Shown here one piece after another: positions 2 through 12,151 of a stretch of DNA of 64,000 bases; within the stretch, counting starts at the first letter, position 1; each line of letters begins with the position of its first letter. The notes under the pieces are model-generated. The model was given only the letters and a program-made list of their open reading frames with translations. It did not search any database and was not told where the DNA came from. The DNA is from Elusimicrobiota bacterium (GTDB taxonomy: Bacteria; Elusimicrobiota; Elusimicrobia; UBA1565; JACRDR01). The stretch is from positions 320,822 through 384,821 of the forward strand of contig JACQBA010000013.1 of the NCBI GenBank assembly GCA_016194745.1. Reading direction: 5' to 3'. Both the position numbers and the translations under genes were made by a program.

Positions 2-739
2 GTGCGCGCGTCCTACTACGATGAGGCGAAGGAGCAGGTCGACCATCTCTACGACGCCGGCGCGCCGAAGATCGCGGTGCTCTATCAGAACGACGCGTTC
101 GGGAACGCGGTGCTCGAAGGCGTCAAGAAGGCGATGAAGGCTCACGGCGCCGAGCCGGTCGCCTTGGGCTCCTTCCCGCGCGGAACGCTGGACGTCGATG
201 AGGGCATCAAGTCGGTGAAGTCGGCGAAGCCGGACGCCGTCGTGCTCGTCGGACCCTACGCGCCGCTCGCGGAGATCGTCAAGCGCGCGAAGGCCGGCGG
301 ATTTAGCCCCCTGTTCACCACCGTCTCGTTCGTTGGAACCGAGGCATTCATCAAGGCCTCGGGCAAGGACGGCGAGGGCACCGTGATCACGCAGGTCGTC
401 CCTCCGCCGGACCGGACGGACCTCAAGACCGTAGCCCTGTACCGCAAGCTCCTCAAGGAGAAGGAAAAGGACGCCGAGCCCAACTTCGTGAGCCTCGAAG
501 GCTTCGTCGACGCGATGGTGATGGTCGACGGCCTTCGCAAGGCCGGCAAGGACCTCACGCGCGAGGGCTTCATCGACGCGATCGAGACGATCAAGGACTT
601 GGACATGGGACTCGGCAAGAACCTGATGATCAGCTACGGACCGGACGACCACGAGGGCTTCAAGCAGCTCTATCCCACGGTGGTCAAGGACGGAAAGGCC
701 GTCGTGTTCACGGACTGGAAGTCCGTGCTGCCGAAATGA
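2..739 (+). CDS. Periplasmic substrate-binding protein (type-1 PBP, Liv/ANF-receptor-like), 5'-truncated by the window edge
   Basis: Translation is lysine/aspartate-rich and non-shadow, with PBP-like motifs ([26 protein letters not shown]). Its stop overlaps the MCP start (ATGA at 736-739). Confidence 0.6.
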
Positions 740-2277
740 CGAACATCGGCGGCATCAAGAAACTCGGGCTCACGGCGAAGCTGACGATTCCGTTCGCCTG
801 CATCCTTCTGACGACGGTAGCGGTGCTGGGCGGCGTATTCGTCAGCAGCAGCAAACAGAACCTCAACTCCAGCCTTCAGAAGAAGGGCGAGATCCTCGCC
901 CGCAACCTCGCGACCGCCTTGAGCGATCCGTTCTCCATGGGCGAATACGACCATATCCAGCGCCTCCTCAAGGAGGCGCACGACGCCGACACCGACATCG
1001 TCTACGCCACGGTGGTAGGACAGGACGGCAAGTGCATCGCGAGCACGGAAGAGAGCCTCAAGAACCAAACTCTCAACCGCACGGACCTCGAGCTGGCGGC
1101 GCTCAAGACGATGGAATTCACGCGCCGCGATACGCAGCAGCCGAGCATCTTCGAACTGGACACGCCGATCAAGTTCCAAGCGAACCGGCTGGGCGTGCTC
1201 CGCATCGGCGTCTCGACGTCGGCGGCCGACCGCGTGGTCTCTCGGGCGCAGGTCACGTTCACGCTCATCGGAGCCATCGCGCTCGTGCTGGGCGTGCTCA
1301 TCTACGTCTACGTCGCGCGGCGCGTCGCGGCGCCTCTCGTGGCGGCGGTGGTGCGTCTCGAGGAGCTCGCCGCCGGCGGCGCGGACCTGAACGTCCGCCT
1401 CCCCGTCGAGTCCGAGGACGAGGTCGGACAGCTGTCGAAGGCGTTCAACACGTTCCTGGACAGCTTGAGCCGGCTGGTGGACCAGGTCCGCGGCGCGTCG
1501 GAGCAGGTCGGCGGATCGAGCAAGACGCTGACCGAGATCACGCAGCAGTCCTCCGCAAATCTCAGCCAGTCCGTCCAAGTCATGAATCAGGTGTCGCAGA
1601 GCACGGGCCAGGTGGCGCAAAGCGCCCAACTCGTGGCCACGGCGACGCAGCAGGCCGGATCGAACGCCCAGCAGGGCGGAAAGCTCGTGTCGAAGGTCGT
1701 CGAACGCATGAAGCTGGCCGAAGCCTCCGTCGACGCCGCCGCGGGCTTCATCCATGAGCTTGGAAAACGATCCGACCAGATCGGCAAGATCGTCGACGTC
1801 ATCACGAAAATCGCCGACCAGACGAACCTTCTCTCGCTCAACGCGGCCATCGAAGCCGCGCGCGCGGGCGAGGCGGGCCGCGGATTCGCGGTCGTCGCCG
1901 AAGAGATTCGAAAGCTGGCCGAGACGTCCGCCGACAGCACCCAACAGATCACGAACCTGATCCGAGAGGTCCAGGACCAGACGCGCAACGCGATCCAGAC
2001 GACGGAGAAAGGCAACAAAGAGGTGGCCGAAAGCTACAAGATCACCTTGGAGGCCGAGAAGCTTTTCTCCGAGATCGCCCGAGAGGTCGGCCAAATCAAT
2101 ATGCAGATGTCCCAGGTCGCCTCCAATACCCAGCAGGTCGCGGCGTCGACCGAGGAAGCCACCGCCTCGAGCGAGGAGCAGTCCGCGGCGATCGAGCAGA
2201 TCGCCACGAACGCCCAAGAGCTGTCGCAGATCGTGCAGAAGCTTCGCTCGATCGTCGCGCAGTTCAGGACCGGCTGA
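736..2277 (+). CDS. mcp: Methyl-accepting chemotaxis protein (TM1, ~150-aa periplasmic sensor, TM2, HAMP, MCP signalling domain)
   Basis: Two hydrophobic segments flank a periplasmic region. HAMP is followed by a Q/S/A-rich methylation region and the conserved signalling tip ([32 protein letters not shown]). Confidence 0.9.
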
Positions 2278-2289
2278 GCAGGGTACGCG

Positions 2290-3375
2290 CTACGGTTTGG
2301 AGTTGATGCCGGCGAGCTTGCGCGGCGGATAGCCGACACGCACCCAGACCTCGCCGGTCGCGGTGAAGAGCTCCACGGTACGTCCCGTGACGCCTCCCAC
2401 GTCCTCCTCGAGGCAGCGGATGCCGGTCTTCTTGAACTGTTCGCGGGCCACTTCCATGTTGCGCTTGCCGACCTGCAGGTGCGGGTTGGCGAGCTTCGGG
2501 AACATGTTCGCGCCGCCGACGAGCCATCCGACCAAAGTGGCCGGGGACGCGTTGATGCGCTTGAGCAGCGCCGGGATGGCGATGTCCGCGTATTTTCCCG
2601 GCCTCGCCGAGACCGACTTGTCGACGGCGGAGGCCAGCGGCAGCATGACGTGCGCCAGGCCCCCGGTCTTCGTCTTCGTGTCGTAGAGGATGACAGCCAT
2701 GCACGAGCCGAGACTGGCCACCTTCAGGATCGACGGGCTCCGGGCGACTTGGACGTCGCCCATCGCGACGTCGATGCGCGACACCGGCGACTGAGCCATG
2801 AGCACGTCGACGTGGGCGACGGACTCGCGCGTCAGACACATCATGAAATAGCCCTTCGAGTTCCACCCGGGACAGATGATCTCCGCCTGGAAGACCACCG
2901 GCTCGCCGGGCGCCGCCGCCTGCGGAAGAAGCAGCATGTTCCAGATCGTGGCGAACGTGTCGCGCACGAGCTTCGGGGGCGCAGTGAAGATGTTGAGCGC
3001 GAGCGATCGAGAGGGCAGGCCGATGACGCCGCTTCCGAAGACGTTGCCGGCTTCCTCGATCGCCGAGCCGTAGAGGTCCTGCTTCTTGTCCTTGATCGGC
3101 TGCCCTTGCCCGATGAGCGTCGCCGCCAATCGATCGGCGTCCGCCTCGGGAAACATGAGCAGCATGTTCCCGTAGACGTCTCCGGTCAACCCCAGGAACA
3201 CCCCGGCCATCTGCGCCGTCGGCGACGCGAAGCCCGGAGGCCGTCCCTTCTCCATGACCGCCAGGTGGACGGGCGTGGGATGAAATGAGAGCCCGGGCGC
3301 CATGCGGGATAGCCCGTGTGAGGCGTAGATGAGTCCTTCGTTTAGAGTCTTCGAGAACTGATCAAGATTATTCAA
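2290..3375 (-). CDS. cheCD: CheC/CheX-like phosphatase domain fused to CheD chemoreceptor glutamine deamidase (TTG start)
   Basis: The N-terminal half has CheC-like motifs (EAGNVFGSGVIGL). The C-terminal half is CheD-like (LGSCMAVILYD...GGLAHVMLP). The reverse complement of the start region gives TTG-AAT-AAT-CTT (MNNL). Confidence 0.75.
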   Translation of the reverse strand: MNNLDQFSKTLNEGLIYASHGLSRMAPGLSFHPTPVHLAVMEKGRPPGFASPTAQMAGVFLGLTGDVYGNMLLMFPEADADRLAATLIGQGQPIKDKKQDLYGSAIEEAGNVFGSGVIGLPSRSLALNIFTAPPKLVRDTFATIWNMLLLPQAAAPGEPVVFQAEIICPGWNSKGYFMMCLTRESVAHVDVLMAQSPVSRIDVAMGDVQVARSPSILKVASLGSCMAVILYDTKTKTGGLAHVMLPLASAVDKSVSARPGKYADIAIPALLKRINASPATLVGWLVGGANMFPKLANPHLQVGKRNMEVAREQFKKTGIRCLEEDVGGVTGRTVELFTATGEVWVRVGYPPRKLAGINSKP

Positions 3376-5380
3376 AGAAGACTCTCACCTCGGCGTCGTG
3401 GTGAAGAGGAGAGGTAAAGCCCGCGCTCTCGCCGTTGATGAGAAGACGGAGCCGCTTGCCGGGCACGGCCGACAGATTCATCGGGACGTGGCGGAACAAG
3501 TCGAACAGCATGACCCGCTCGCCGGGACCCGCGGCCGGCTGCAGGACGATCTCCTCCCCGTTGAGGCGCACGCGCAGGGAGTTGAAAGGCAACGGCGCTT
3601 CGGGCAACGGCTCGGGAAACGGCAGGGACGGCTCCGACACGCTCACGTCGAGCTGGTCGCCGGCGCACAGCACCGAACTCCTGGACGCCGGAGCCCCGTT
3701 GAGAAGGACCTTCAGCGTCACGGACGAACTGTCGTGGCGATGGCCCCGCGAATGGTGCATGAACTTCTCGGCGGCCTCCCACGCGGTCGCCGGAGAGTCC
3801 CACGCGATGCGAGCGCGATCCGGGAGCTCCGCGTCCAAGTTGCAATGCGCGCCGTCCAAGAGCGCGTTCGGGAAGACCGTCTGCAGGTCCCCGTTGATGC
3901 GCACTTGGACCGCCGCCTCGGCGAGCGCCTCGCGCAGGGTCGCGATGCCCTCGGCCCCAGAGGAACCGGGTTCGAACTTGATCCGGTCGTTCTCGCGCAG
4001 TTCACGGTCCAAGCCCGCCGGCTGCCCGTTGACGGAGATGCGGCCCCGGCTGCCGGGGAATCCGCGCACGGCGCGCACCTTTCCATTCAACGTATACGTA
4101 CGCGCGGGACCGGGCCGGCCGTAAATCTGGTCGGGGGGCACGCCCGCGGCGACGAACGCCGCCTGCACCGTCAGCGTCGCCCCGCTGTCGAGCAGATGGA
4201 CCGGCTTCTCATTGAGATACACCCGGCGAAACCGCAAGCCCGCCTTGTCGCGCGCCACGAGAGCAATCCCGAGCGGCGTCACGGCCTGAGGCGTGCTCAT
4301 CGCGGGCGATGCCGACTGGATCGAAGGAGCGCGGAAACCCACTCTGTCCCGTTCGATGCCGAGAGCGTCCGAGATGGCGTCCTCGATGCCCGGCGTGAGG
4401 CTGCCTCCTCCCACGCAGACAACGAGCTGCGGCGCCTGTCCTCCCGCGAGATCAAGGATGTGCGCGGCGATCTGACGGGCCAGCTCCTTTACGGCCGGCT
4501 CCAGGCCGCGGCGGATCTCGGCGGGGGCGAAGTGCCTCGGACGATGGAAAAGGTCCAGCGCTTCGATCGGGCCCTCCGACGCCAGCGAGCACTTCAGGCG
4601 TTCGGCGGTGAAGAAATCGACGAGGCATTGGTCGCTGATCCGATCCGTCACGAAGTCGCCCGCCATCGGCACCATGCCGAACGCCCGGACGCGTCCTTCG
4701 CGGACGATCGCGATATCAGAGGTCCCCGCGCCGATGTCGACGAGCGCGAGATGGAAGCGGCGCAGCCCTTCGGGAACCGCCGCCTGCAAGGCCGCGATGG
4801 GCTCGAGCGTCACGCACAGGGCCTCCAAGCCGGACGCCTCGAGCACGCTGAAAAGACTGTCGAGCACGCGTCGCGGCAGGAACGTGGCCAGCACCTCGGC
4901 CTCGAGCGTCTCTCCGACGTGGCCGACCGGCTGCGATAGCGTCTCCCCGTCGAGCGAGAACCACGTCACGACGTAGCCGACGCATTGATGATACTGCGCG
5001 CTGGCGTCCGAGGGCCCGAGCTGCCGCTGGGCCTCCTGCAGCGCCTGCTGCACGCACCATTGGGAGTCCTCGGCGGTCACCTGCTGGGGACGCGCGAACG
5101 GGAGCTTGGCGCGCCCGCGGACGGTCTTGAGATTGCGTCCGGCGACCGCGACCGCCGCCTTGGTCGGGATTTTTCCGCAGCGCGCCTCCAGCGCGGCGAT
5201 CGTTTCGCGGACGACCGCCGCCACTCGCGGCACGTCCTGAATCTGCCCGGCGCTCATGGAGCGCGTCGGATGCTCCACGAGCTCCGCGTCGTCCACGACC
5301 ACGCCGTCTCCTTCCGCTCGGGCGAGCAGGCCCATCACCTTGCGCGTCCCGATGTCCAGCGCGAATATCCTTTCCGTCAT
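3368..5380 (-). CDS. FtsA/PilM/EutJ-like actin-fold (ASKHA) ATPase with ~290-aa C-terminal extension of tandem beta-grasp (ThiS/MoaD- or S4-like) repeats
   Basis: The N-terminal FALDIGTRKV is an actin-fold phosphate-1 motif. LALVDIGAGTSDIAIV and VVCVGGGSLTPGIEDAISDALG match FtsA/PilM phosphate-2 and adenosine motifs. The C-terminus carries 5-6 repeats with an hxhxhNGxxh...GDxhxh pattern. The ATG overlaps the cheA stop (ATGA at 5377-5380). Confidence 0.6.
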   Translation of the reverse strand: MTERIFALDIGTRKVMGLLARAEGDGVVVDDAELVEHPTRSMSAGQIQDVPRVAAVVRETIAALEARCGKIPTKAAVAVAGRNLKTVRGRAKLPFARPQQVTAEDSQWCVQQALQEAQRQLGPSDASAQYHQCVGYVVTWFSLDGETLSQPVGHVGETLEAEVLATFLPRRVLDSLFSVLEASGLEALCVTLEPIAALQAAVPEGLRRFHLALVDIGAGTSDIAIVREGRVRAFGMVPMAGDFVTDRISDQCLVDFFTAERLKCSLASEGPIEALDLFHRPRHFAPAEIRRGLEPAVKELARQIAAHILDLAGGQAPQLVVCVGGGSLTPGIEDAISDALGIERDRVGFRAPSIQSASPAMSTPQAVTPLGIALVARDKAGLRFRRVYLNEKPVHLLDSGATLTVQAAFVAAGVPPDQIYGRPGPARTYTLNGKVRAVRGFPGSRGRISVNGQPAGLDRELRENDRIKFEPGSSGAEGIATLREALAEAAVQVRINGDLQTVFPNALLDGAHCNLDAELPDRARIAWDSPATAWEAAEKFMHHSRGHRHDSSSVTLKVLLNGAPASRSSVLCAGDQLDVSVSEPSLPFPEPLPEAPLPFNSLRVRLNGEEIVLQPAAGPGERVMLFDLFRHVPMNLSAVPGKRLRLLINGESAGFTSPLHHDAEVRVFFE

Positions 5381-7149
5381 ACCAGCCCCCGCACGTCGAG
5401 GATAAGCACCACTCGGCCGTCGCCGAGAATGGTGCAGTTGCTCACGCCGCGCACGTGGCGGAGCAGTCCGCTCAGGTTCTTCATGACGATCTCCCGCCGG
5501 TCGACGACCTCGTCTACGAACATGGCCGCCTTGCCGCGAGCGACGCGGATGACTACGCCGTAGCCGCCTTCCGGGCGGATCCCTCCCTCGAACTCCGAGA
5601 GGCCGAACACCCGACGGACGTCCACCATGGGGACGACTTCCCCCCGCAGCGAGATGACCGGCGCCTTGTCGACGGTCTTCGTCATCACGACATCGAGCGA
5701 GACGAGCTCGAGCACGTCGGCGATGGGTAGAGCGAAGGTGTCTTTGCCGACGCGCACGAGCAGCGCTTGAATGATCGCCAAATTGAGCGGGAGGAACAGG
5801 GAGACCCGCGATCCCTTCCCCAGGGTCGAGACGATCTCGAGGCGTCCGTTGACGCTGTCGATCACGCGCTGGACGACGTCCATCCCGACGCCGCGGCCCG
5901 AGATTTCCGTGACCTTCTCCGCGGTCGAGAATCCCGGGTGGCAGACCACGTAGAGGATGTCCGCGTCGGACGTCCGCGCGGCCTCGTCCTCCGTCATCAC
6001 GCCGCGGCTCACGGCCAGCTGGCGGATGCGTGCCGGGTTCATGCCCTTGCCGTCGTCGACGACCTCGACCACGGCGTAGCCCTGGTCCCGGCGGGCGCGC
6101 AAGATGAGCTTGCCTTCTCCGGACTTTCCCGCCTTGACCCGCTCCTCAGGCGTCTCGATGCCGTGGTCGATGGCGTTGCGCAGCAGGTGCACGAGAGGCT
6201 CGTTGATGTTATAGAGGAGAAGCCGGTCGACCGAAATCCCCTGGTCCTGGATCTCGAAGTTGATCTTCCGCTTGAGCTGGTTCGACGTGTCGCGCACGAT
6301 GCGCCGATAATGCTCGAAGATCTCGGACACCGGCACCGTGCGCGTGTCGAGCGCCTCCTGCTGGAGCTGCTGGACGAGCCGCTCGAAAATCTTCAGCTCA
6401 TCCTCGATGACGCCGACGCGCAGCGTCTGCGCCTGCTGGATGAGCCTGGCCTTGGAAATCGTTAGCTCCTCGACCAGGTTCATGATGTTGTCGAGATGCT
6501 TGAGCCCGACGCGCACGGTGGTCCGCGACGAGGAATCCTCGGCGACCGCGGTGCCGGGCGCTTTCGCCTCGGGCGCGGGCTTGGGAGCCTCGGCAGCGGG
6601 CTTCGGCGGCTCGGTCTTGGCCGCCGGCGCGGGAGCCGCGGACGCGGGAGGCGTGAACGTCCCTCCCCAGGCCGCCTCGGGTGACACGGCGCGCGACTCC
6701 GGATCGGGCTTGGCGGGCGCGGGAGCCGCGGCGGCGGCGGCGGGAGCCGCGGCGTCTCCGGCGGCCGGGGCGGCGGCGGCGGCTTTGAGCCGCGCCAGCG
6801 CCGGAGCGATGTCGATCCCGAGCTCCTTGCCTTCCCGGACCTCCGCCAGAAGGCTGGCCAGCACATCCACGCACGCCAGCAGCGCATCGAACATGGCCAG
6901 CGTCGCCTTCCCTTCTCCTTTCGACAGCGGATCGAGGCAGTCCTCGACCGCGTGCGCCAGCTCGGTCATCTTCTGCAGACCCATCGTGGCCGCGTTGCCC
7001 TTCAGGGTGTGAACGTGCCGGAAGATGGCATGCAGCAGTTCGACGTTGCCGAGGTCCTTTTCCAGCTGCACGAGGGCCTTCTCGGTCTGCCCGAGGAGGT
7101 CCTCGGCCTCGCCGATGAATACGTCCTTGAACTCGGAAAAATCGGTCAT
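5377..7149 (-). CDS. cheA: Chemotaxis histidine kinase CheA (Hpt, Pro/Ala-rich linker, dimerisation, HATPase_c, CheW-like; no recognisable P2)
   Basis: The Hpt motif is HAIFRHVHTLKGNAATMG. The kinase core has NAIDHGIE, DDGKGM and GRGVGMDVV, and the C-terminus is CheW-like. The ORF track extends far upstream (874 aa of Arg-rich junk); the plausible start is the internal ATG at 7149, overlapping the cheB stop. Confidence 0.9.
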   Translation of the reverse strand: MTDFSEFKDVFIGEAEDLLGQTEKALVQLEKDLGNVELLHAIFRHVHTLKGNAATMGLQKMTELAHAVEDCLDPLSKGEGKATLAMFDALLACVDVLASLLAEVREGKELGIDIAPALARLKAAAAAPAAGDAAAPAAAAAAPAPAKPDPESRAVSPEAAWGGTFTPPASAAPAPAAKTEPPKPAAEAPKPAPEAKAPGTAVAEDSSSRTTVRVGLKHLDNIMNLVEELTISKARLIQQAQTLRVGVIEDELKIFERLVQQLQQEALDTRTVPVSEIFEHYRRIVRDTSNQLKRKINFEIQDQGISVDRLLLYNINEPLVHLLRNAIDHGIETPEERVKAGKSGEGKLILRARRDQGYAVVEVVDDGKGMNPARIRQLAVSRGVMTEDEAARTSDADILYVVCHPGFSTAEKVTEISGRGVGMDVVQRVIDSVNGRLEIVSTLGKGSRVSLFLPLNLAIIQALLVRVGKDTFALPIADVLELVSLDVVMTKTVDKAPVISLRGEVVPMVDVRRVFGLSEFEGGIRPEGGYGVVIRVARGKAAMFVDEVVDRREIVMKNLSGLLRHVRGVSNCTILGDGRVVLILDVRGLV

Positions 7150-8204
7150 CGGGGCGCGAGCTCCTCGACGCGCTTGACGCTCGCGACGATGGCCCCGGCG
7201 ATCTTGTCGATCGGCAGGATGTGGTCCACGAGGTTCGCGTCGGAGACCGCCTTGGGCATGCCGTAGACGAAGCTGGTCTTCTCGTCCTGGGCGATCGTAA
7301 TGCCGCCCCCTTCCTTGATCTTGCGCATTCCCTCCACCCCGTCCGAGCCCATGCCGCTCAGGACGACTCCGATGCAGCGCCGACCGTACAACAAGGCCGC
7401 CGTCGCCATGCTCGCATCGATCCACGGCTTGATGTTGATCGGCGACGCGTTCGTCGTGGACTGCCCCACCGCGCCCCAGCCGCCGCGCACCCACTCCACC
7501 TTGAGGATGTCGTCGCCGGGAGCGACGTACACGGTGCCCTCGACGAACACGTCGCCGGGATTGGCGACCTTGACGCTGATCTCGGAGATCGACGCGAGAT
7601 GAGACGTCATCTGGCGCGTGAAGGCGATGGGAAGATGCTGCACGATCAAGATGGACGCCGCGAGGTTCTTCGGAAGTTTCGGGACGATCTCGCGAAGGTG
7701 CACCGGACCGCCGGCGGAGGAGCCGATCACGACCATCGTCTTGGCGAGCGCGAGTTTCGCCGGCCTGGACGGCGTCTTGGAGAAAAAGGGTTTGAGCTTG
7801 GATTCGTCGATGCTGCCGACCTCGCGCACGCGCGCCACGAGCGCCTCGCGAAACTGAGCCGCGCTGCCCTCGGACTGAGTGGGCTTGACGATGCAGTCGA
7901 TGGCGCCGCTGTCGAGCGCGCGCATGGCGACGGCGCTCTCCGGCTGCGCGACCGAACTGAGGATGATCACGCGGCGGGAGTGCTCGTGGACGAGGTGCCA
8001 AAGGACCTCGAGGCCGTCCATGTCCGGAAGGATCACGTCGAGGGTCACAACGTCGGGATGGAGGGACGCCGCGAGGGCGATCGCCTCCTTGCCGGTTTTC
8101 GCCATGCCGACCACCTGGATCTCGGCATCGCTCTGGAGCGTCTTGGTGACGATCTCCTGCATATAGGTCGAGTCCTCGACCACCAGGACACGGACTCGCT
8201 TCAT
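7146..8204 (-). CDS. cheB: Protein-glutamate methylesterase CheB (REC + methylesterase)
   Basis: MKRVRVLVVEDSTYMQ...DVILPDMDGLEV is the REC domain. The methylesterase domain has GSSAGGP...QHLP and GMGSDG. The start was chosen at the internal ATG 8204, abutting the cheY stop. Confidence 0.9.
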   Translation of the reverse strand: MKRVRVLVVEDSTYMQEIVTKTLQSDAEIQVVGMAKTGKEAIALAASLHPDVVTLDVILPDMDGLEVLWHLVHEHSRRVIILSSVAQPESAVAMRALDSGAIDCIVKPTQSEGSAAQFREALVARVREVGSIDESKLKPFFSKTPSRPAKLALAKTMVVIGSSAGGPVHLREIVPKLPKNLAASILIVQHLPIAFTRQMTSHLASISEISVKVANPGDVFVEGTVYVAPGDDILKVEWVRGGWGAVGQSTTNASPINIKPWIDASMATAALLYGRRCIGVVLSGMGSDGVEGMRKIKEGGGITIAQDEKTSFVYGMPKAVSDANLVDHILPIDKIAGAIVASVKRVEELAPR

Positions 8205-8572
8205 GAAAGGACTTTCGTGATCGCCTTCTCGATCTCCGTCCAATCCACCGGCTTGTGCACGATCGCGGAGACGCCGAGCTCCTTCGCCTGATCGATCTCC
8301 GAGCTTCCGTAGAGCGCGCTCACCACCACGATCTTGGCTTTCGGATCCATCGCATACAGCGCCTTGATCGCCTCCACGCCGCCGCCGTCCGGCATGACGA
8401 TGTCCATCGTCACGACGTCCGGTTTCACCTTCTTGTACAGATCGACCGCCTCCGACGGCCCTGACGCAGACCCTACCACGTTGAAGCCGTGGGTCTCTAA
8501 CATACGCTGGAGGATCATGCGGGCGTACGTGGAATCATCGACAATGAGAACGCGGCGTGTTGAAGTTGTCAA
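8201..8572 (-). CDS. cheY: Chemotaxis response regulator CheY (TTG start)
   Basis: Single REC domain of 123 aa (VLIVDDSTYAR...DVVTMDIVMPDGGG...KIVVVSA). The start-region reverse complement reads TTG ACA ACT TCA. Confidence 0.85.
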   Translation of the reverse strand: MTTSTRRVLIVDDSTYARMILQRMLETHGFNVVGSASGPSEAVDLYKKVKPDVVTMDIVMPDGGGVEAIKALYAMDPKAKIVVVSALYGSSEIDQAKELGVSAIVHKPVDWTEIEKAITKVLS

Positions 8573-9405
8573 GAAACCTCCTGGTCGGAGTCGATTTTCG
8601 TGTAGATCTTGTGTTCCCTGTCGACCGTCTTGAAAATCCCATGCAGCAAGACGATCTCAGAGGCGCCCAGGATCAAGATGCCGCGAGGCGTCAGGCACCG
8701 GTGAAATCTGTGAAGGATCTGGTTCTTGGCGGGCGTTGTGAAATAGATCATCACGTTGCGGCACAAGATCAGATCGATGTGGTCGATCGGCGGGTGCGTC
8801 GCCAGGTCATGCCGCTTGAACTGGACCTTCTTCACCAGGCTGTCGGCTACCTGCACCTTGTCCCCGTGATCGCGGAGATACTTGGACCGGTAGTGGGCGG
8901 GCACCGCGGACATGGCCGCCTTCGGATAGAGGCCGGGCCGCGCGGCCTTCAGTTGCTCCTCGTTGAAATCGGTCGCCAGGATCTGGTACTTGAGACCGAG
9001 GGACGCGCGCTGCGTTACGTAGGAATCGACCACCATCGCGACCGTGTAGGGCTCCTGGCCGGTGGCGCATCCGGCGCTCCAGATCACCATGGGGCGGATC
9101 TGGGTTCCCGAGCGGGACCAGAGCCCGTCGAAGATAGGATTGAGCGTCTTCTCGGACAGCTCGTTGTCGCGAAAGAACCCGGTGACGTTGATCGTCAGGG
9201 AATCGATGAGCTTCTGGTATTCCACGGGCGTCTTTGCCAGCAGCCCCATGTAATCCTTGAACGTCCCGATCTGGTTGTGGCCCATCCGCGCCAAAAGCCG
9301 GCGCTCCAAGAACGCGTCGCTGTATTGGGACAGGTCGAGGCCCCGAGTATCGACGAGATGGCGTTTCAGCTTCTCCAAGTCCTCGGGTGCCAATAACGTC
9401 GCCAT
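8569..9405 (-). CDS. cheR: Chemotaxis protein methyltransferase CheR
   Basis: The CheR N-terminal helix domain is followed by a SAM-dependent methyltransferase domain (VTGFFRDNE, IWSAGCATGQEPYTVAM). Confidence 0.9.
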   Translation of the reverse strand: MATLLAPEDLEKLKRHLVDTRGLDLSQYSDAFLERRLLARMGHNQIGTFKDYMGLLAKTPVEYQKLIDSLTINVTGFFRDNELSEKTLNPIFDGLWSRSGTQIRPMVIWSAGCATGQEPYTVAMVVDSYVTQRASLGLKYQILATDFNEEQLKAARPGLYPKAAMSAVPAHYRSKYLRDHGDKVQVADSLVKKVQFKRHDLATHPPIDHIDLILCRNVMIYFTTPAKNQILHRFHRCLTPRGILILGASEIVLLHGIFKTVDREHKIYTKIDSDQEVS

Positions 9406-9415
9406 TGGATTGAGG

Positions 9416-9913
9416 TCAGCCAGCGGCTTTCTCCATGCTCTCCAGTAGCTTGCGCTCGATGTCGTTGAGCATCTTCGTCAAATCGATTAGGACCACCAGC
9501 CGGTCCTCCATCTTGCCGACGCCGTAGAGGAACTCGGCGTCCATCCGGGGAAGGGTCGACGGGACGGGGTCCACGGAATCGGACATGAAGCGCACGACGC
9601 CGCTGACCTCGTCCACGATCAAGCCGATGAGCTGCTCGCCCAAGAAGGAGACGATTACGCGCTGATTCGCTTCCTCGACCTTCCCTCCGGCCGTGATCTC
9701 GAAGCGCTCCTTGAGGTCGAGCAGCGGGACGATCTTTCCGCGGAGATTGAACACGCCCTTGATGAACTTCGGCATCCGCGGGACGTGGGTGACGCTGGAA
9801 TAGCGCGAGATCTCCTGCACCTGCGTGGCCGGCACCCCGTATTCCTCTATGCCGAGCTTGAAGATCACCCACTGCGAAGCCTGCACCGCCGTCTTCGGGC
9901 TCTTCTGATCCAT
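9416..9913 (-). CDS. cheW: Chemotaxis coupling protein CheW
   Basis: ~165-aa CheW-like domain (WVIFKLGIEEYGVPATQVQEI...FIKGVFNLRGKIVPLLDL). The ORF-track N-terminus (Arg/His-rich) was rejected; the start was set at the ATG at 9913. Confidence 0.85.
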   Translation of the reverse strand: MDQKSPKTAVQASQWVIFKLGIEEYGVPATQVQEISRYSSVTHVPRMPKFIKGVFNLRGKIVPLLDLKERFEITAGGKVEEANQRVIVSFLGEQLIGLIVDEVSGVVRFMSDSVDPVPSTLPRMDAEFLYGVGKMEDRLVVLIDLTKMLNDIERKLLESMEKAAG

Positions 9914-9915
9914 GC

Positions 9916-10329
9916 CTACCCCCTCGGCGGCAGAGCGATGAATTCCCGCAGTTTGGACTCGAGCCGATCCATGTGCAGCGGCTTGACCAAGTACCCGTTG
10001 GCGCCGCTTTCCCTGGCCTTGTCGACGTCCTTCACGCGGTCCGTGCCGGTGAGCATGATGACCGGGATCGTCCGCGTGTTTTCCCGCTGACGGAGAGCAA
10101 GCGTGGTGGCGAAGCCGTCCATCTGCGGCATCATCGCGTCGACGAGAATGAGATCCGGCTTCTGCTCCTCCGCCAGCTTCACGCACTCTTCGCCGCTGAG
10201 GGCCGTGAGCGAGTCGCACCCCAGCTGGAAAAGCATCGCCTTCGTGGTCTCGATGATCAGCGGCGAGTCGTCGACGTGCAGTACGAGAGGCTTTGTACGC
10301 TTCAATCCCAGCATCGATGCGAAGCCCAT
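9916..10329 (-). CDS. Single-domain response regulator receiver (CheY-like)
   Basis: REC domain only (LVLHVDDSPLIIE...DLILVDAMMPQMDGF...VIMLTG...K). Confidence 0.8.
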   Translation of the reverse strand: MGFASMLGLKRTKPLVLHVDDSPLIIETTKAMLFQLGCDSLTALSGEECVKLAEEQKPDLILVDAMMPQMDGFATTLALRQRENTRTIPVIMLTGTDRVKDVDKARESGANGYLVKPLHMDRLESKLREFIALPPRG

Positions 10330-10335
10330 GGTAGT

Positions 10336-11049
10336 TTACCCCACTTGCAGGATAACGGACACGCCCCCCTTCTTTTCATTGGAAATCGAAAGCGAACCGC
10401 CGTGTTCCATCGCGATCTTCCGGGCCCAGCTCAAGCCGAGGCCGCGCCTGCCCTGCTTGTTCGTGAAGAACGGCTGGACCGCGGACTCGAGTATCTCCGC
10501 CGACATAGGGTCTCCGGTATTATGGATCTCGATCGCCGCCTGAGAACCAGCTCCGGTCAGCGACACCGTGACGACGCCCCCCTTGCCGGCCAGAGCGTCG
10601 ACGCAGTTGTCGAGGATCTCCTTGATCGCGCGCGCGAAGAGTTCCTTGTCCATCTGCAGCGTCTTCGGGAAACCGGGGACGATCTTCCATTCGATCTTGA
10701 CCTTGGAGTCAGAACAGATAGGGTGCTGTCCCACGTGCTCCTTGAGCCACGGCTCCACGTCGATGTCCGTGGGTTCCAGGGACAAGGACTGCAGAAGATA
10801 GGATGCTTCTTCTATGTCCTTTAGCGCCTTCTCGGAAGCGTGCCGAAACTGGCCGATCATCTTCGGCGTCATGGTCGACGTGGTCTTGGGCATCATCTCC
10901 AAGCACTCGAAGAATCCGACCACCGCCCCAAGATTATTCCGCAAATTGTGAATAAAATAGCTCCAATCGAATTGGGGCGGCGGGTACGCTCGATTCGCAG
11001 TTTGGGTGCTCACGGGCAAGATTATAGCCTTGAAACGTATATAAATCAA
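10336..11049 (-). CDS. Soluble sensor histidine kinase (HisKA + HATPase_c, no TM or sensor domain detected)
   Basis: H-box FIHNLRNNLGAV. The ATPase core has N-box EILDNCVDA, HNTGDPM and G-box GLGLSWARKIAMEHGG. The N-terminus is translated from an AT-rich region, so the start is uncertain. Confidence 0.7.
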   Translation of the reverse strand: MIYIRFKAIILPVSTQTANRAYPPPQFDWSYFIHNLRNNLGAVVGFFECLEMMPKTTSTMTPKMIGQFRHASEKALKDIEEASYLLQSLSLEPTDIDVEPWLKEHVGQHPICSDSKVKIEWKIVPGFPKTLQMDKELFARAIKEILDNCVDALAGKGGVVTVSLTGAGSQAAIEIHNTGDPMSAEILESAVQPFFTNKQGRRGLGLSWARKIAMEHGGSLSISNEKKGGVSVILQVG

Positions 11050-11095
11050 TGCGGGAAAATTTGACCCGATTAGCCCTAAAGAGCTATGTATAAAT

Positions 11096-12151
11096 ATGGC
11101 CGGTCCGGTCCGAGTTTGGAACCCGCCGAACCCCTACCTTACCGAGCAGCGCGAGCTCCTCGGCGAGCCTCCCGCGACCGAGCTCGAAGTCTACGAGGAC
11201 AGCTCCCGCTCGGCGCTGACGAGCAACGACAGCCCGGACGTCGGCTTCCATTGGAGCGTCAATCCGTACCGCGGCTGCTTCCACGCCTGCGCCTACTGCT
11301 ACGCCCGCCCGACGCACGAATACCTCGGGCTGGGCGCGGGGACGGACTTCGACAGGAAGATATTCGTCAAGAAGAACGCGCCCGCCCTGCTGGAACAGGC
11401 CTTCCGCAAGCGCTCGTGGAAAGGCGAACTTGTAGCGTTCTCCGGCGTCACGGACTGCTACCAGCCGCTGGAAGCCGGCTACCGCCTGACTCGTAGCTGC
11501 CTGACGGTCTGCCTCAGCTACCGCAACCCCGCCGCGGTCATCACCAAATCGGCTCTCGTCCGGAGGGACGTCGACGTCCTGGCGGCCTTGGCGAAGGAAG
11601 CGTTCGCCCGCGTCCTGTTCAGCATTCCATTCATCGACGAGGACGCCGCCCGACTGATCGAGCCCGGCGCGGCGAGCATCCGTAAACGGTTCGAGACCAT
11701 GGAGATCCTCGCCAAGGCCGGAATCCCGGTCGGGATCGGCATCGCGCCGGTGATCCCCGGACTCAACGACTCGAGCATCCCGGCGCTGCTCAAGGAGGCC
11801 CGAAGCCGAGGGGCGACGACGGCGTTTCACCAGCTTCTCCGATTGCCCGGAAGCGTGCAGGAGGTGTTTCTCCACCGCGTCCGCGAGGCGATGCCCATGC
11901 GCGCGGGCAAGATCGAGCGGCAGATCCGGGCCGCGCGGGGCGGCGGTCTCAACGAAAGCCGATTCGGGCTTCGGCATCAGGGCAAGGGCAAGATCTGGGA
12001 CGCAATGGAGCAGACATGGAATCTTTGGACGAGGAAGCTGGGCTTCAATGAAGATCGCGCGGCGCCGGCCGACACGTTCCGCCGGCCGCCGGAAGCCGAC
12101 GCGGGACCGCAGATGGAGCTTTTCGCGCTCGACCCCAAGGAGTCCCGCTGA
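11096..12151 (+). CDS. Radical SAM protein, spore-photoproduct-lyase (SplB)-like DNA repair enzyme
   Basis: CFHACAYCY is a CX3CX2C radical-SAM cluster motif. Length and layout are typical of the SplB/DNA-repair-photolyase family. Confidence 0.7.
   Translation: MAGPVRVWNPPNPYLTEQRELLGEPPATELEVYEDSSRSALTSNDSPDVGFHWSVNPYRGCFHACAYCYARPTHEYLGLGAGTDFDRKIFVKKNAPALLEQAFRKRSWKGELVAFSGVTDCYQPLEAGYRLTRSCLTVCLSYRNPAAVITKSALVRRDVDVLAALAKEAFARVLFSIPFIDEDAARLIEPGAASIRKRFETMEILAKAGIPVGIGIAPVIPGLNDSSIPALLKEARSRGATTAFHQLLRLPGSVQEVFLHRVREAMPMRAGKIERQIRAARGGGLNESRFGLRHQGKGKIWDAMEQTWNLWTRKLGFNEDRAAPADTFRRPPEADAGPQMELFALDPKESR

Follow-up and report, generated by a model that had tools for sequence, protein, structure and literature searches.

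An FtsA-class actin-fold protein with a tail of four beta-grasp domains, encoded within a chemotaxis operon of an Elusimicrobiota bacterium

Two members of one subclass of actin-fold proteins, FtsA and PilM, have been studied, and both are membrane-proximal hubs; in FtsA, the actin-like part is followed by a C-terminal linker and an amphipathic membrane-targeting helix. The known accessory and positioning proteins of bacterial chemotaxis (ParC/ParP, PpfA, CheV and CheC/CheD/CheX) are encoded in che operons and are presumed to act on the chemosensory array or on the turnover of phosphorylated CheY, those which position the array being ParA/MinD-type ATPases or CheW-like adaptors; to our knowledge, no actin-like protein is a component of the Che pathway. 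The focus of the present report is a gene, hereafter gene X, found in a stretch of 64,000 nucleotides (the window) of an Elusimicrobiota bacterium (assembly GCA_016194745.1, contig JACQBA010000013.1, positions 320,822 to 384,821). Gene X occupies positions 3368..5380 of the window on the minus strand (670 amino acids (aa) and a stop codon) and encodes a cytoplasmic actin-fold protein of the FtsA/PilM class, in which about 290 aa forming four beta-grasp domains stand in place of the membrane-targeting helix of FtsA.

Among described proteins, FtsA (PDB 7q6d, 3wqt and 1e4f) shares 14–21% sequence identity with the gene X product; unlike FtsA, gene X is part of a che operon and has no ftsZ or dcw neighbours. 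PilM (PDB 2ych, 3jc8 and 5eou) is devoid of a beta-grasp tail, and its sequence match is weaker than that of FtsA. The domains of the tail have their fold in common with ThiS, MoaD, SAMP, TtuB, RnfH and TGS, from which the tail differs in that four copies are present on one ATPase-fused chain, three of them probably interleaved; compared with the ThiS and MoaD carriers, it has neither a terminal Gly-Gly nor an E1-like partner, and hence no sulfur-carrier or modifier chemistry. The ubiquitin-like proteins Ubl2 and Ubl3 of the Bil/Bub operons (PDB 9d5a, 9cd2 and 9d59) are alike in bearing several beta-grasp domains on a single bacterial polypeptide, two to three in tandem there and four here; the Ubl3 proteins are described as self-assembling into filaments (Gong et al. 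2024, PMC11601603), and the Bil/Bub proteins are encoded together with ubiquitination-related E1, E2, JAB or DUF6527 enzymes (PMC11601603). The gene X product differs from them in its actin-like N-terminus, in an identity of only about 10%, and in that no E1, E2, JAB or DUF6527 gene accompanies it in the window operon or in the related loci L083–L085.

The translation of gene X is identical (100%) to an NCBI entry named 'MAG: hypothetical protein HY078_11845 [Elusimicrobia bacterium]'; its GC content at third codon positions (0.85) is like that of the adjoining genes, and more than 120 full-length homologues, 606–754 aa long, were collected. Its N-terminal domain (aa 1–379, positions 4244..5380, minus strand; 1C/SHS2 insertion at about aa 85–169) scores above threshold with PF14450 and reaches 104.5 bits with the FtsA equivalog model TIGR01174, under the cutoff of 175.85; with the PilM models, it obtains 50.9 bits where the cutoff is 133 (TIGR01175) and a borderline 27.7 where it is 27 (PF11104, PilM_2), while a profile search of the PDB returns FtsA at 3e-27 and PilM at 8e-12. 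The motifs DxGT (D9, G11, T12), DIGAGTSD (D215–D222) and GGGS (G324–S327), which cover the phosphate-1, phosphate-2 and adenosine sites, are invariant or nearly so in 48 homologues; since all three are conserved, nucleotide binding is very probably retained. Like FtsA, the domain has an actin fold that includes a 1C (SHS2) subdomain and keeps the nucleotide-binding motifs, and the actin-like N-terminal part proposed in the first-pass annotation, which had been made from the letters of the window alone, is borne out and can be specified as FtsA type. The C-terminal amphipathic helix of FtsA is absent: no helix follows aa 631, and the C-terminus is a beta-strand (...AEVRVFFE).

The first-pass annotation had also described the region 3368..4225, which corresponds to aa 386–670 and the stop codon of the gene X product, as five to six equivalent units of about 40 aa, each with a pattern resembling ThiS/MoaD or S4 domains. 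The repeat itself is real and conserved. Six copies of the motif [LIVMFY]-x-[LIVMFY]-[ND]-G are present in the 291-aa tail and one in the 379-aa N-terminal part; composition-preserving shuffles of the tail contain 0.18 copies on average and three at most, none of 20,000 reaching six, and a chance or low-complexity origin of the repeat is ruled out by these shuffle statistics. Self-similarity is detected both in the single sequence, where Smith-Waterman comparison of the 'NG...GD' pieces gives z = 4.5–6.0 for four of the six pairs (c1/c2, c1/c3, c1/c4 and c3/c4, as named below), and in profile-profile comparison of the segments aa 425–472, 478–530, 531–588 and 603–670, cut from the alignment of 48 homologues, where every pair reaches a probability of 97–98.5% with P values from 1e-10 to 3e-15. 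Comparison of the whole tail with itself by hhalign gave no off-diagonal matches in that mode, and the segment-versus-segment comparison was used instead.

The fold of these units is that of the beta-grasp. AlphaFold2 (AF2) models built with the family alignment reach a predicted local distance difference test score (pLDDT) of 89.7 for the complete protein and of 91.8 for the isolated tail; the best Foldseek matches of the tail are the multi-ubiquitin proteins of Citrobacter and E. coli (9d5a, E 2.5e-5; 9cd2_B, E 1.5e-4), followed by linear di-ubiquitin and ISG15 (E about 2e-3 to 1e-2) and then by single ubiquitin-like domains (about 0.1). All fold matches are to beta-grasp proteins (SAMP1, RnfH, MoaD, ThiS, TGS and the bacterial multi-ubiquitin proteins), and the sequence profile of the tail matches TtuB, SAMP2 and RnfH. 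Homologues exceed the gathering score of the Pfam ThiS model (PF02597; 22.5 bits), for instance P0063 with 50.7, P0117 with 45.0 and P0118 with 43.5 bits, and homologues additionally match the Ub-Mut7C, TGS, RnfH and ThiS-like Pfam models. A point against the assignment is that the target alone reaches 18.0 bits with ThiS, and that a Pfam scan of its tail gives nothing above threshold, with weak ThiS, Ub-Mut7C and TGS matches at aa 444–472. The ThiS/MoaD/ubiquitin-type modules suspected earlier are supported by the tail model, the Foldseek matches and the homologues passing the ThiS threshold; an S4 fold was rejected, the resemblance being confined to the motif, the fold matches being all beta-grasp, and neither the alpha-L fold nor the Pfam threshold of S4 (PF01479) being attained.

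The secondary structure assigned by DSSP to both AF2 models comprises four b1-b2 hairpins (h1, aa 383–398; h2, 427–438; h3, 491–502; h4, 602–613), four helices (a1, 405–420; a2, 481–489; a3, 533–544; a4, 625–631) and four b3-b4-b5 halves of the type 'hxhNG...GDxhxh' (c1, 447–470; c2, 506–527; c3, 555–582; c4, 644–669), from which four beta-grasp domains are counted. All five sequence strings quoted in the first-pass annotation are found in the translation of the open reading frame (ORF) at 3368..5380 on the minus strand; they are unequal pieces rather than five to six equivalent units, the first consisting of h2 and c1, the second of h3 and c2, the third of c3, the fourth of h4 and a4, and the fifth of c4. 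The first hairpin, RRVYLNEKPVHLLD, with N-E in place of N-G, had been overlooked. Along the chain, the elements follow one another as h1 a1 h2 c1 a2 h3 c2 a3 c3, a proline-rich linker, and h4 a4 c4, so that only the fourth domain (D4; aa 602–670, positions 3371..3577, minus strand) is contiguous and has the canonical order. The first three domains occupy one block (aa 383–582, positions 3635..4234, minus strand), within which the models show no low-confidence linker. The proline-rich acidic linker, EPSLPFPEPLPEAPLPFNS (aa 583–601, positions 3578..3634, minus strand), has 7 Pro in 19 aa, an isoelectric point of 4.05 and pLDDT values below 50 at residues 584–597, and its length varies across the family, as seen from alignment gaps. 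D4 holds the best-conserved motif of the tail, GKxLxLxxNGxxAxFTSPLxxGAEVxxxFE, in which A653, T656 and G662 are conserved in at least 90% of the 48 homologues.

The order of the elements in the block probably reflects three domains stitched into one interleaved rod, D1 being composed of h1, a1 and c1, D2 of h2, a2 and c2, and D3 of h3, a3 and c3. In such an arrangement, the hairpin of each domain would be inserted in the helix-to-b3 loop of the preceding one, the b3-b5 half of which would in turn be inserted in the b2-to-helix loop of the domain that follows, and the chain would cross every interdomain interface three times. Four lines of evidence (indel grammar, linker lengths, covariation and spliced profiles) are consistent with this topology. 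With regard to the first, all forms of the family fit the grammar h a [h c a]n c, in which the numbers of h, a and c are equal. A five-unit form, h1 a1 h2 c1 a2 h3 c2 a3 h' c3 a' h4 c' a4 c4, occurs in 76 of 129 sequences; its additional hairpin h' and half c', which are not contiguous, are both present in these 76, both absent from 52, and ambiguous in one. The four-unit form is found in several clades, and a three-unit form, h1 a1 h2 c1 a2 h3 c2 a c, in L010 and L046; in P0002/P0003 and, separately, in P0086, h3, a3 and c3 are all missing while the intervening c2 is kept. These counts come from column occupancy and direct reading, per-element hidden Markov models being too noisy for hairpins and helices of 10–15 aa.

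As for the linkers, a2 is separated from h3 by 1 aa and h3 from c2 by 3 aa. In the canonical beta-grasp (ubiquitin topology), three strands separate the end of b2 from the start of b3, which are found at opposite poles of the domain; h3 and c2 cannot, then, belong to one canonical unit, because a linker of 3 aa is too short for the join between b2 and b3. If the interleaved domains are stacked head to tail, we infer that each connection would join neighbouring ends.

Covariation was analysed by mean-field direct coupling analysis (DCA) of 313 tails aligned with mafft --auto (effective number of sequences about 260; L = 305; 44,850 pairs). The analysis recovers the a1-c1, a2-c2, a3-c3 and a4-c4 contacts, for the last of which 12 pairs exceed the 99.5th percentile where 1.0 would be expected; of the canonical controls, h1-c1 appears at rank 30 and h4-c4 at rank 74. 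The pairing of h2 is with c2 (ranks 10, 17 and 57), the best h2-c1 pair ranking only 196; the segments 439–446 and 471–480 form an antiparallel ladder (ranks 5, 19, 33 and 40), with which the isolated beta-bridges of the AF2 model at residues 444 and 473 agree. Profiles of D1, D2 and D3 spliced according to the interleaved scheme align end to end with D4 over 54–65 columns at 98.4–98.8% probability, whereas contiguous alternative profiles align fewer columns and skip the helix.

Several points weigh against the interleaved topology. It was deduced from the lines of evidence above and not read from model coordinates; the mean-field DCA is a rough one; covariation between h3 and c3 is weak (ranks 128–180; 4 pairs beyond the 99.5th percentile, 1.8 being expected), h3-c3 being weakly favoured over h3-c2, which has 1 pair against 1.6 expected; and P0004 retains a degenerate hairpin resembling h3 but has neither a3 nor c3. 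The competing arrangement, in which the tail would consist of independent tandem repeats, or of an outer beta-grasp with nested, permuted [h c a] cassettes, is nevertheless unlikely. The best Foldseek matches are indeed tandem beta-grasp proteins (di-ubiquitin, ISG15 and Ubl3), and the grammar is formally compatible with nested cassettes; on the other hand, linkers of 1 and 3 aa cannot bridge b2 to b3 of a canonical domain, covariation pairs h2 with c2 instead of c1, non-contiguous elements disappear together, and aa 383–582 run without a low-confidence linker. Of the discrete beta-grasp domains that the first-pass annotation proposed to look for with AlphaFold, the fold is confirmed and the separateness is not supported, since D1–D3 appear interleaved rather than strung as tandem beads.

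The genes surrounding gene X form a tightly packed operon on the minus strand, in the order cheW, cheR, cheY, cheB, cheA, X and a cheC-like/cheD fusion. The product of cheA (5377..7149, likely start ATG at 7149) has Hpt, dimerisation, HATPase_c and CheW-like domains; the last 4 nt of the gene, with its stop, are shared with the start of gene X (ATGA, 5377..5380), and the end of gene X overlaps by 8 nt (3368..3375) the start of the cheC- or cheX-like gene fused to cheD (2290..3375), which bears a CheD domain (PF03975) at aa 244–346 and of which the N-terminal approximately 240 aa match CheX and CheC of L001 at 46 and 34 bits, respectively. The stop of cheB (7146..8243) and the start of cheA also overlap (ATGA, 7146..7149); cheY (8201..8572), cheR (8569..9405) and cheW (9416..10219, CheW domain at aa 116–254) complete the series. 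Overlaps of 4–8 nt suggest translational coupling through the operon.

Beyond the window, gene X lies between Che genes on both sides, with gaps of at most about 30 nt, in 14 loci, of which 12 are distinct, L001 and L002 being near-identical and L035 and L058 closely related. Upstream of it stands cheA or cheC, and downstream a cheC-family gene, comFB or cheR; a cheC-family gene abuts gene X in all 14. In a fifteenth locus (L056), the upstream side is cut off and comFB-cheR comes immediately after gene X. The loci belong to Elusimicrobia, Omnitrophota, Methylomirabilis, Planctomycetales and the archaeon Methanolobus, and in a neighbour-joining tree the che-linked loci form one clade; the tight position within che operons is thus maintained across distant taxa, for that one clade only. 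The Methanolobus gene groups with the che-linked genes of bacteria, which suggests that the module was transferred as a whole; in Methanolobus (L035/L058, X at about 10001–12100), the cluster reads cheY-cheB-cheA-cheC-X-cheR-cheC-cheC-cheD. The same CheD-containing gene of about 375 aa follows gene X in L004, L083, L084 and L085, and in other members of the clade a separate cheC adjoins it instead of the fusion.

In this genome and clade, the gene X product may tentatively be regarded as a stoichiometric accessory of a CheA-CheW-CheC/CheD-type pathway, most likely as a nucleotide-regulated scaffold or adaptor; the one source of this proposal is the conserved, overlapping gene order, and we consider it possible rather than probable. 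Like the known Che accessory proteins, gene X of the che-linked clade is located inside the che operon, always beside a cheC-family gene, and, unlike the known array-positioning proteins, its product has an actin fold. The beta-grasp domains would serve as protein-binding and spacer modules, their array providing both a stiff spacer and a binding surface, and D4, tethered by the flexible linker EPSLPFPEPLPEAPLPFNS and carrying the best-conserved motif (FTSPL...GAEV), could act as a mobile binding head; the rod and the tethered D4 might then hold CheA and/or the CheC-CheD module to some other cellular structure or to itself. In the che-linked clade, the partners would be Che proteins, probably CheA and/or CheC-CheD, because this adjacency is invariant. 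The polymer-decorating or protein-recruiting scaffold put forward in the first-pass annotation remains plausible.

Taken as a whole (fold, interleaved rod and Che accessory), this is the explanation that we favour by a little. The distribution of the family speaks against its last part: most members, in Bacillota, are not beside che genes, and their neighbourhoods are lineage-specific, so that the ancestral role of the family is not chemotaxis-specific. Examples of these contexts are aroA/ytxJ in Bacilli and ctsR-mcsAB-clpC in Syntrophomonas, and neighbour clustering yielded no conserved operon partner in Bacillota. In Bacilli (Brevibacillus, Sporosarcina, Niallia and other genera; L009, L016, L019, L025, L039, L040, L062, L068, L070 and others), surroundings of the ccpA-aroA / ytxJ-ytxH-ytxG-murC type were read by eye from the sequences, and gene X is probably monocistronic there, because its neighbours are encoded on the other strand. 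Four Bacillota loci have a bona fide cheR gene just before gene X, on the same strand, with no other che gene near (L034, 5768–6643; L038, 5043–5825; L048, of Heliobacterium mobile, 2104–2964; L076, 2479–3255). The family extends over Bacillota, Thermotogae, Elusimicrobia, Omnitrophota and some archaea, and no NCBIfam model covers it; the tail profile matches 1401 representatives of clusters at 50% identity at E <= 1e-3, 951 at <= 1e-10 and 463 at <= 1e-30. Given that almost all of the best 150 matches are 600–800 aa long, with the tail starting at about aa 380–410, the tail is essentially always fused to the FtsA-like ATPase, and the shorter matches are probably fragments. A still broader possibility is that the family represents an unrecognised class of prokaryotic cytoskeletal adaptor, made of an FtsA-type ATPase and an interleaved rod, of which one clade would have been recruited as a core stoichiometric chemosensory component, organising the array or coupling it to output; this we regard as rather doubtful.

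Of the other roles considered, the one that survives best, improbable as it is, is that of a PilM-type platform, by which the Che system would be coupled to a type IV filament machine and the protein would belong to the output of the pathway rather than to a scaffold of the array. The PF11104 match just exceeds its cutoff, and some neighbourhoods point in the same direction: in L001/L002 (L001, 3755–4177) and L005, the che cluster is closely preceded by a prepilin-type (N_methyl) gene, the operon of the syntenic L085 has a gene for a PilB-like T2SSE/MshEN ATPase upstream of it (1–1320), and a gene of the ComFB family, which is linked to pilus and competence regulation, follows gene X in six loci with operons of the Omnitrophota type (L001/L002, L005, L015, L033 and L056); together, these neighbours are a hint of some connection with type IV filaments. 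Against it stand the TIGR01175 score, far under its cutoff, and the window, where Pfam reveals no pilin or T2SSE gene in 44 of 54 ORF calls, those of the che operon all included (no search by name was made for pilN/O/P/Q).

It is very unlikely that the tail binds RNA or tRNA through TGS/S4-like units and links the ATPase to translation or to sensing of the stringent-response type: the sub-threshold or borderline TGS and S4 Pfam matches of the c units, and a match to the S4-domain protein YabO (E = 0.016), would speak for it but span only the hairpin and strand of the 'NG...GD' piece (20–25 aa), the tail is near-neutral rather than basic (isoelectric point 6.85; 32 K+R versus 33 D+E), and the gene context is that of chemotaxis, not of translation. 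Least credible of all are a genuine divisome FtsA, to which the database name 'cell division protein FtsA' of relatives would point and which is contradicted by the score under the equivalog cutoff, the missing amphipathic helix and the absence of an ftsZ/dcw context in the window, and a sulfur carrier or precursor of a conjugated modifier, which the ThiS/MoaD fold of the domains would allow and which is excluded because the target ends in ...VFFE and the family in FFE/FE, WEE or WV, never in Gly-Gly, GG does not follow the internal domains either, and no E1, E2, JAB, MoeB or ThiF-type gene is found in the window operon or in the loci L001 and L083–L085.

Other features of the window complete the description of the locus. 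Convergent to the operon, on the plus strand, a periplasmic binding protein gene (2..739) precedes a gene for a methyl-accepting chemotaxis protein with HAMP and MCPsignal domains (736..2277), an arrangement which recurs in the relative L085. In L083 and L084, two relatives of the Elusimicrobia type, a Tll0287-like gene (PF11845; 11727–12485 and 11780–12514, respectively) stands among the genes for methyl-accepting chemotaxis proteins downstream of X-cheD; it is absent from the window. Upstream of cheW, a 237-aa protein consisting of HATPase_c only is encoded at 10336..11049 on the minus strand, and a counterpart of 220 aa occupies the corresponding position of L085. The cheW ORF has an N-terminal extension of about 115 aa before the CheW domain, and its start may be miscalled; the mechanical cheA ORF (5377..8001, minus strand) runs 284 codons beyond the likely start ('MTDFSEF...') into cheB, a long-ORF artefact of high GC content, as are the many long antisense ORFs of the region. 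No flagellar or pilus genes, from which the output of the pathway could be identified, were detected in the rest of the window among the 44 of 54 ORF calls scanned. A 977-aa protein combining a LuxC-type acyl-CoA reductase (280 bits) with an AMP-binding, LuxE-like part is encoded at 31967..34900 on the minus strand and is unrelated to the tail.

Both component folds are well known, and proteins with multiple beta-grasp domains are known from the Bil/Bub operons; the combination of an FtsA-class actin fold with a poly-beta-grasp tail, its probable interleaving and the che-operon clade seem not to have been described before. In the literature searched, no paper was found which links an FtsA-like protein to CheA or describes a family joining FtsA to beta-grasp domains, and the 2007 survey of the beta-grasp fold contains neither mention of FtsA, HSP70 or chemotaxis fusions nor a description of an interleaved tandem-domain topology; the architecture, which the first-pass annotation had called unusual, deserves the word as far as these sources go.

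The family constitutes a large third branch of the FtsA/PilM actin subclass, with no assigned function, in which the membrane anchor has been exchanged for ubiquitin-fold domains. If the interleaving is true, it would represent an unusual route from a small globular fold to a stiff spacer; and gene X, overlapping both cheA and the cheC-cheD fusion, is a concrete candidate for the organisation or wiring of the chemosensory array in some non-model phyla.

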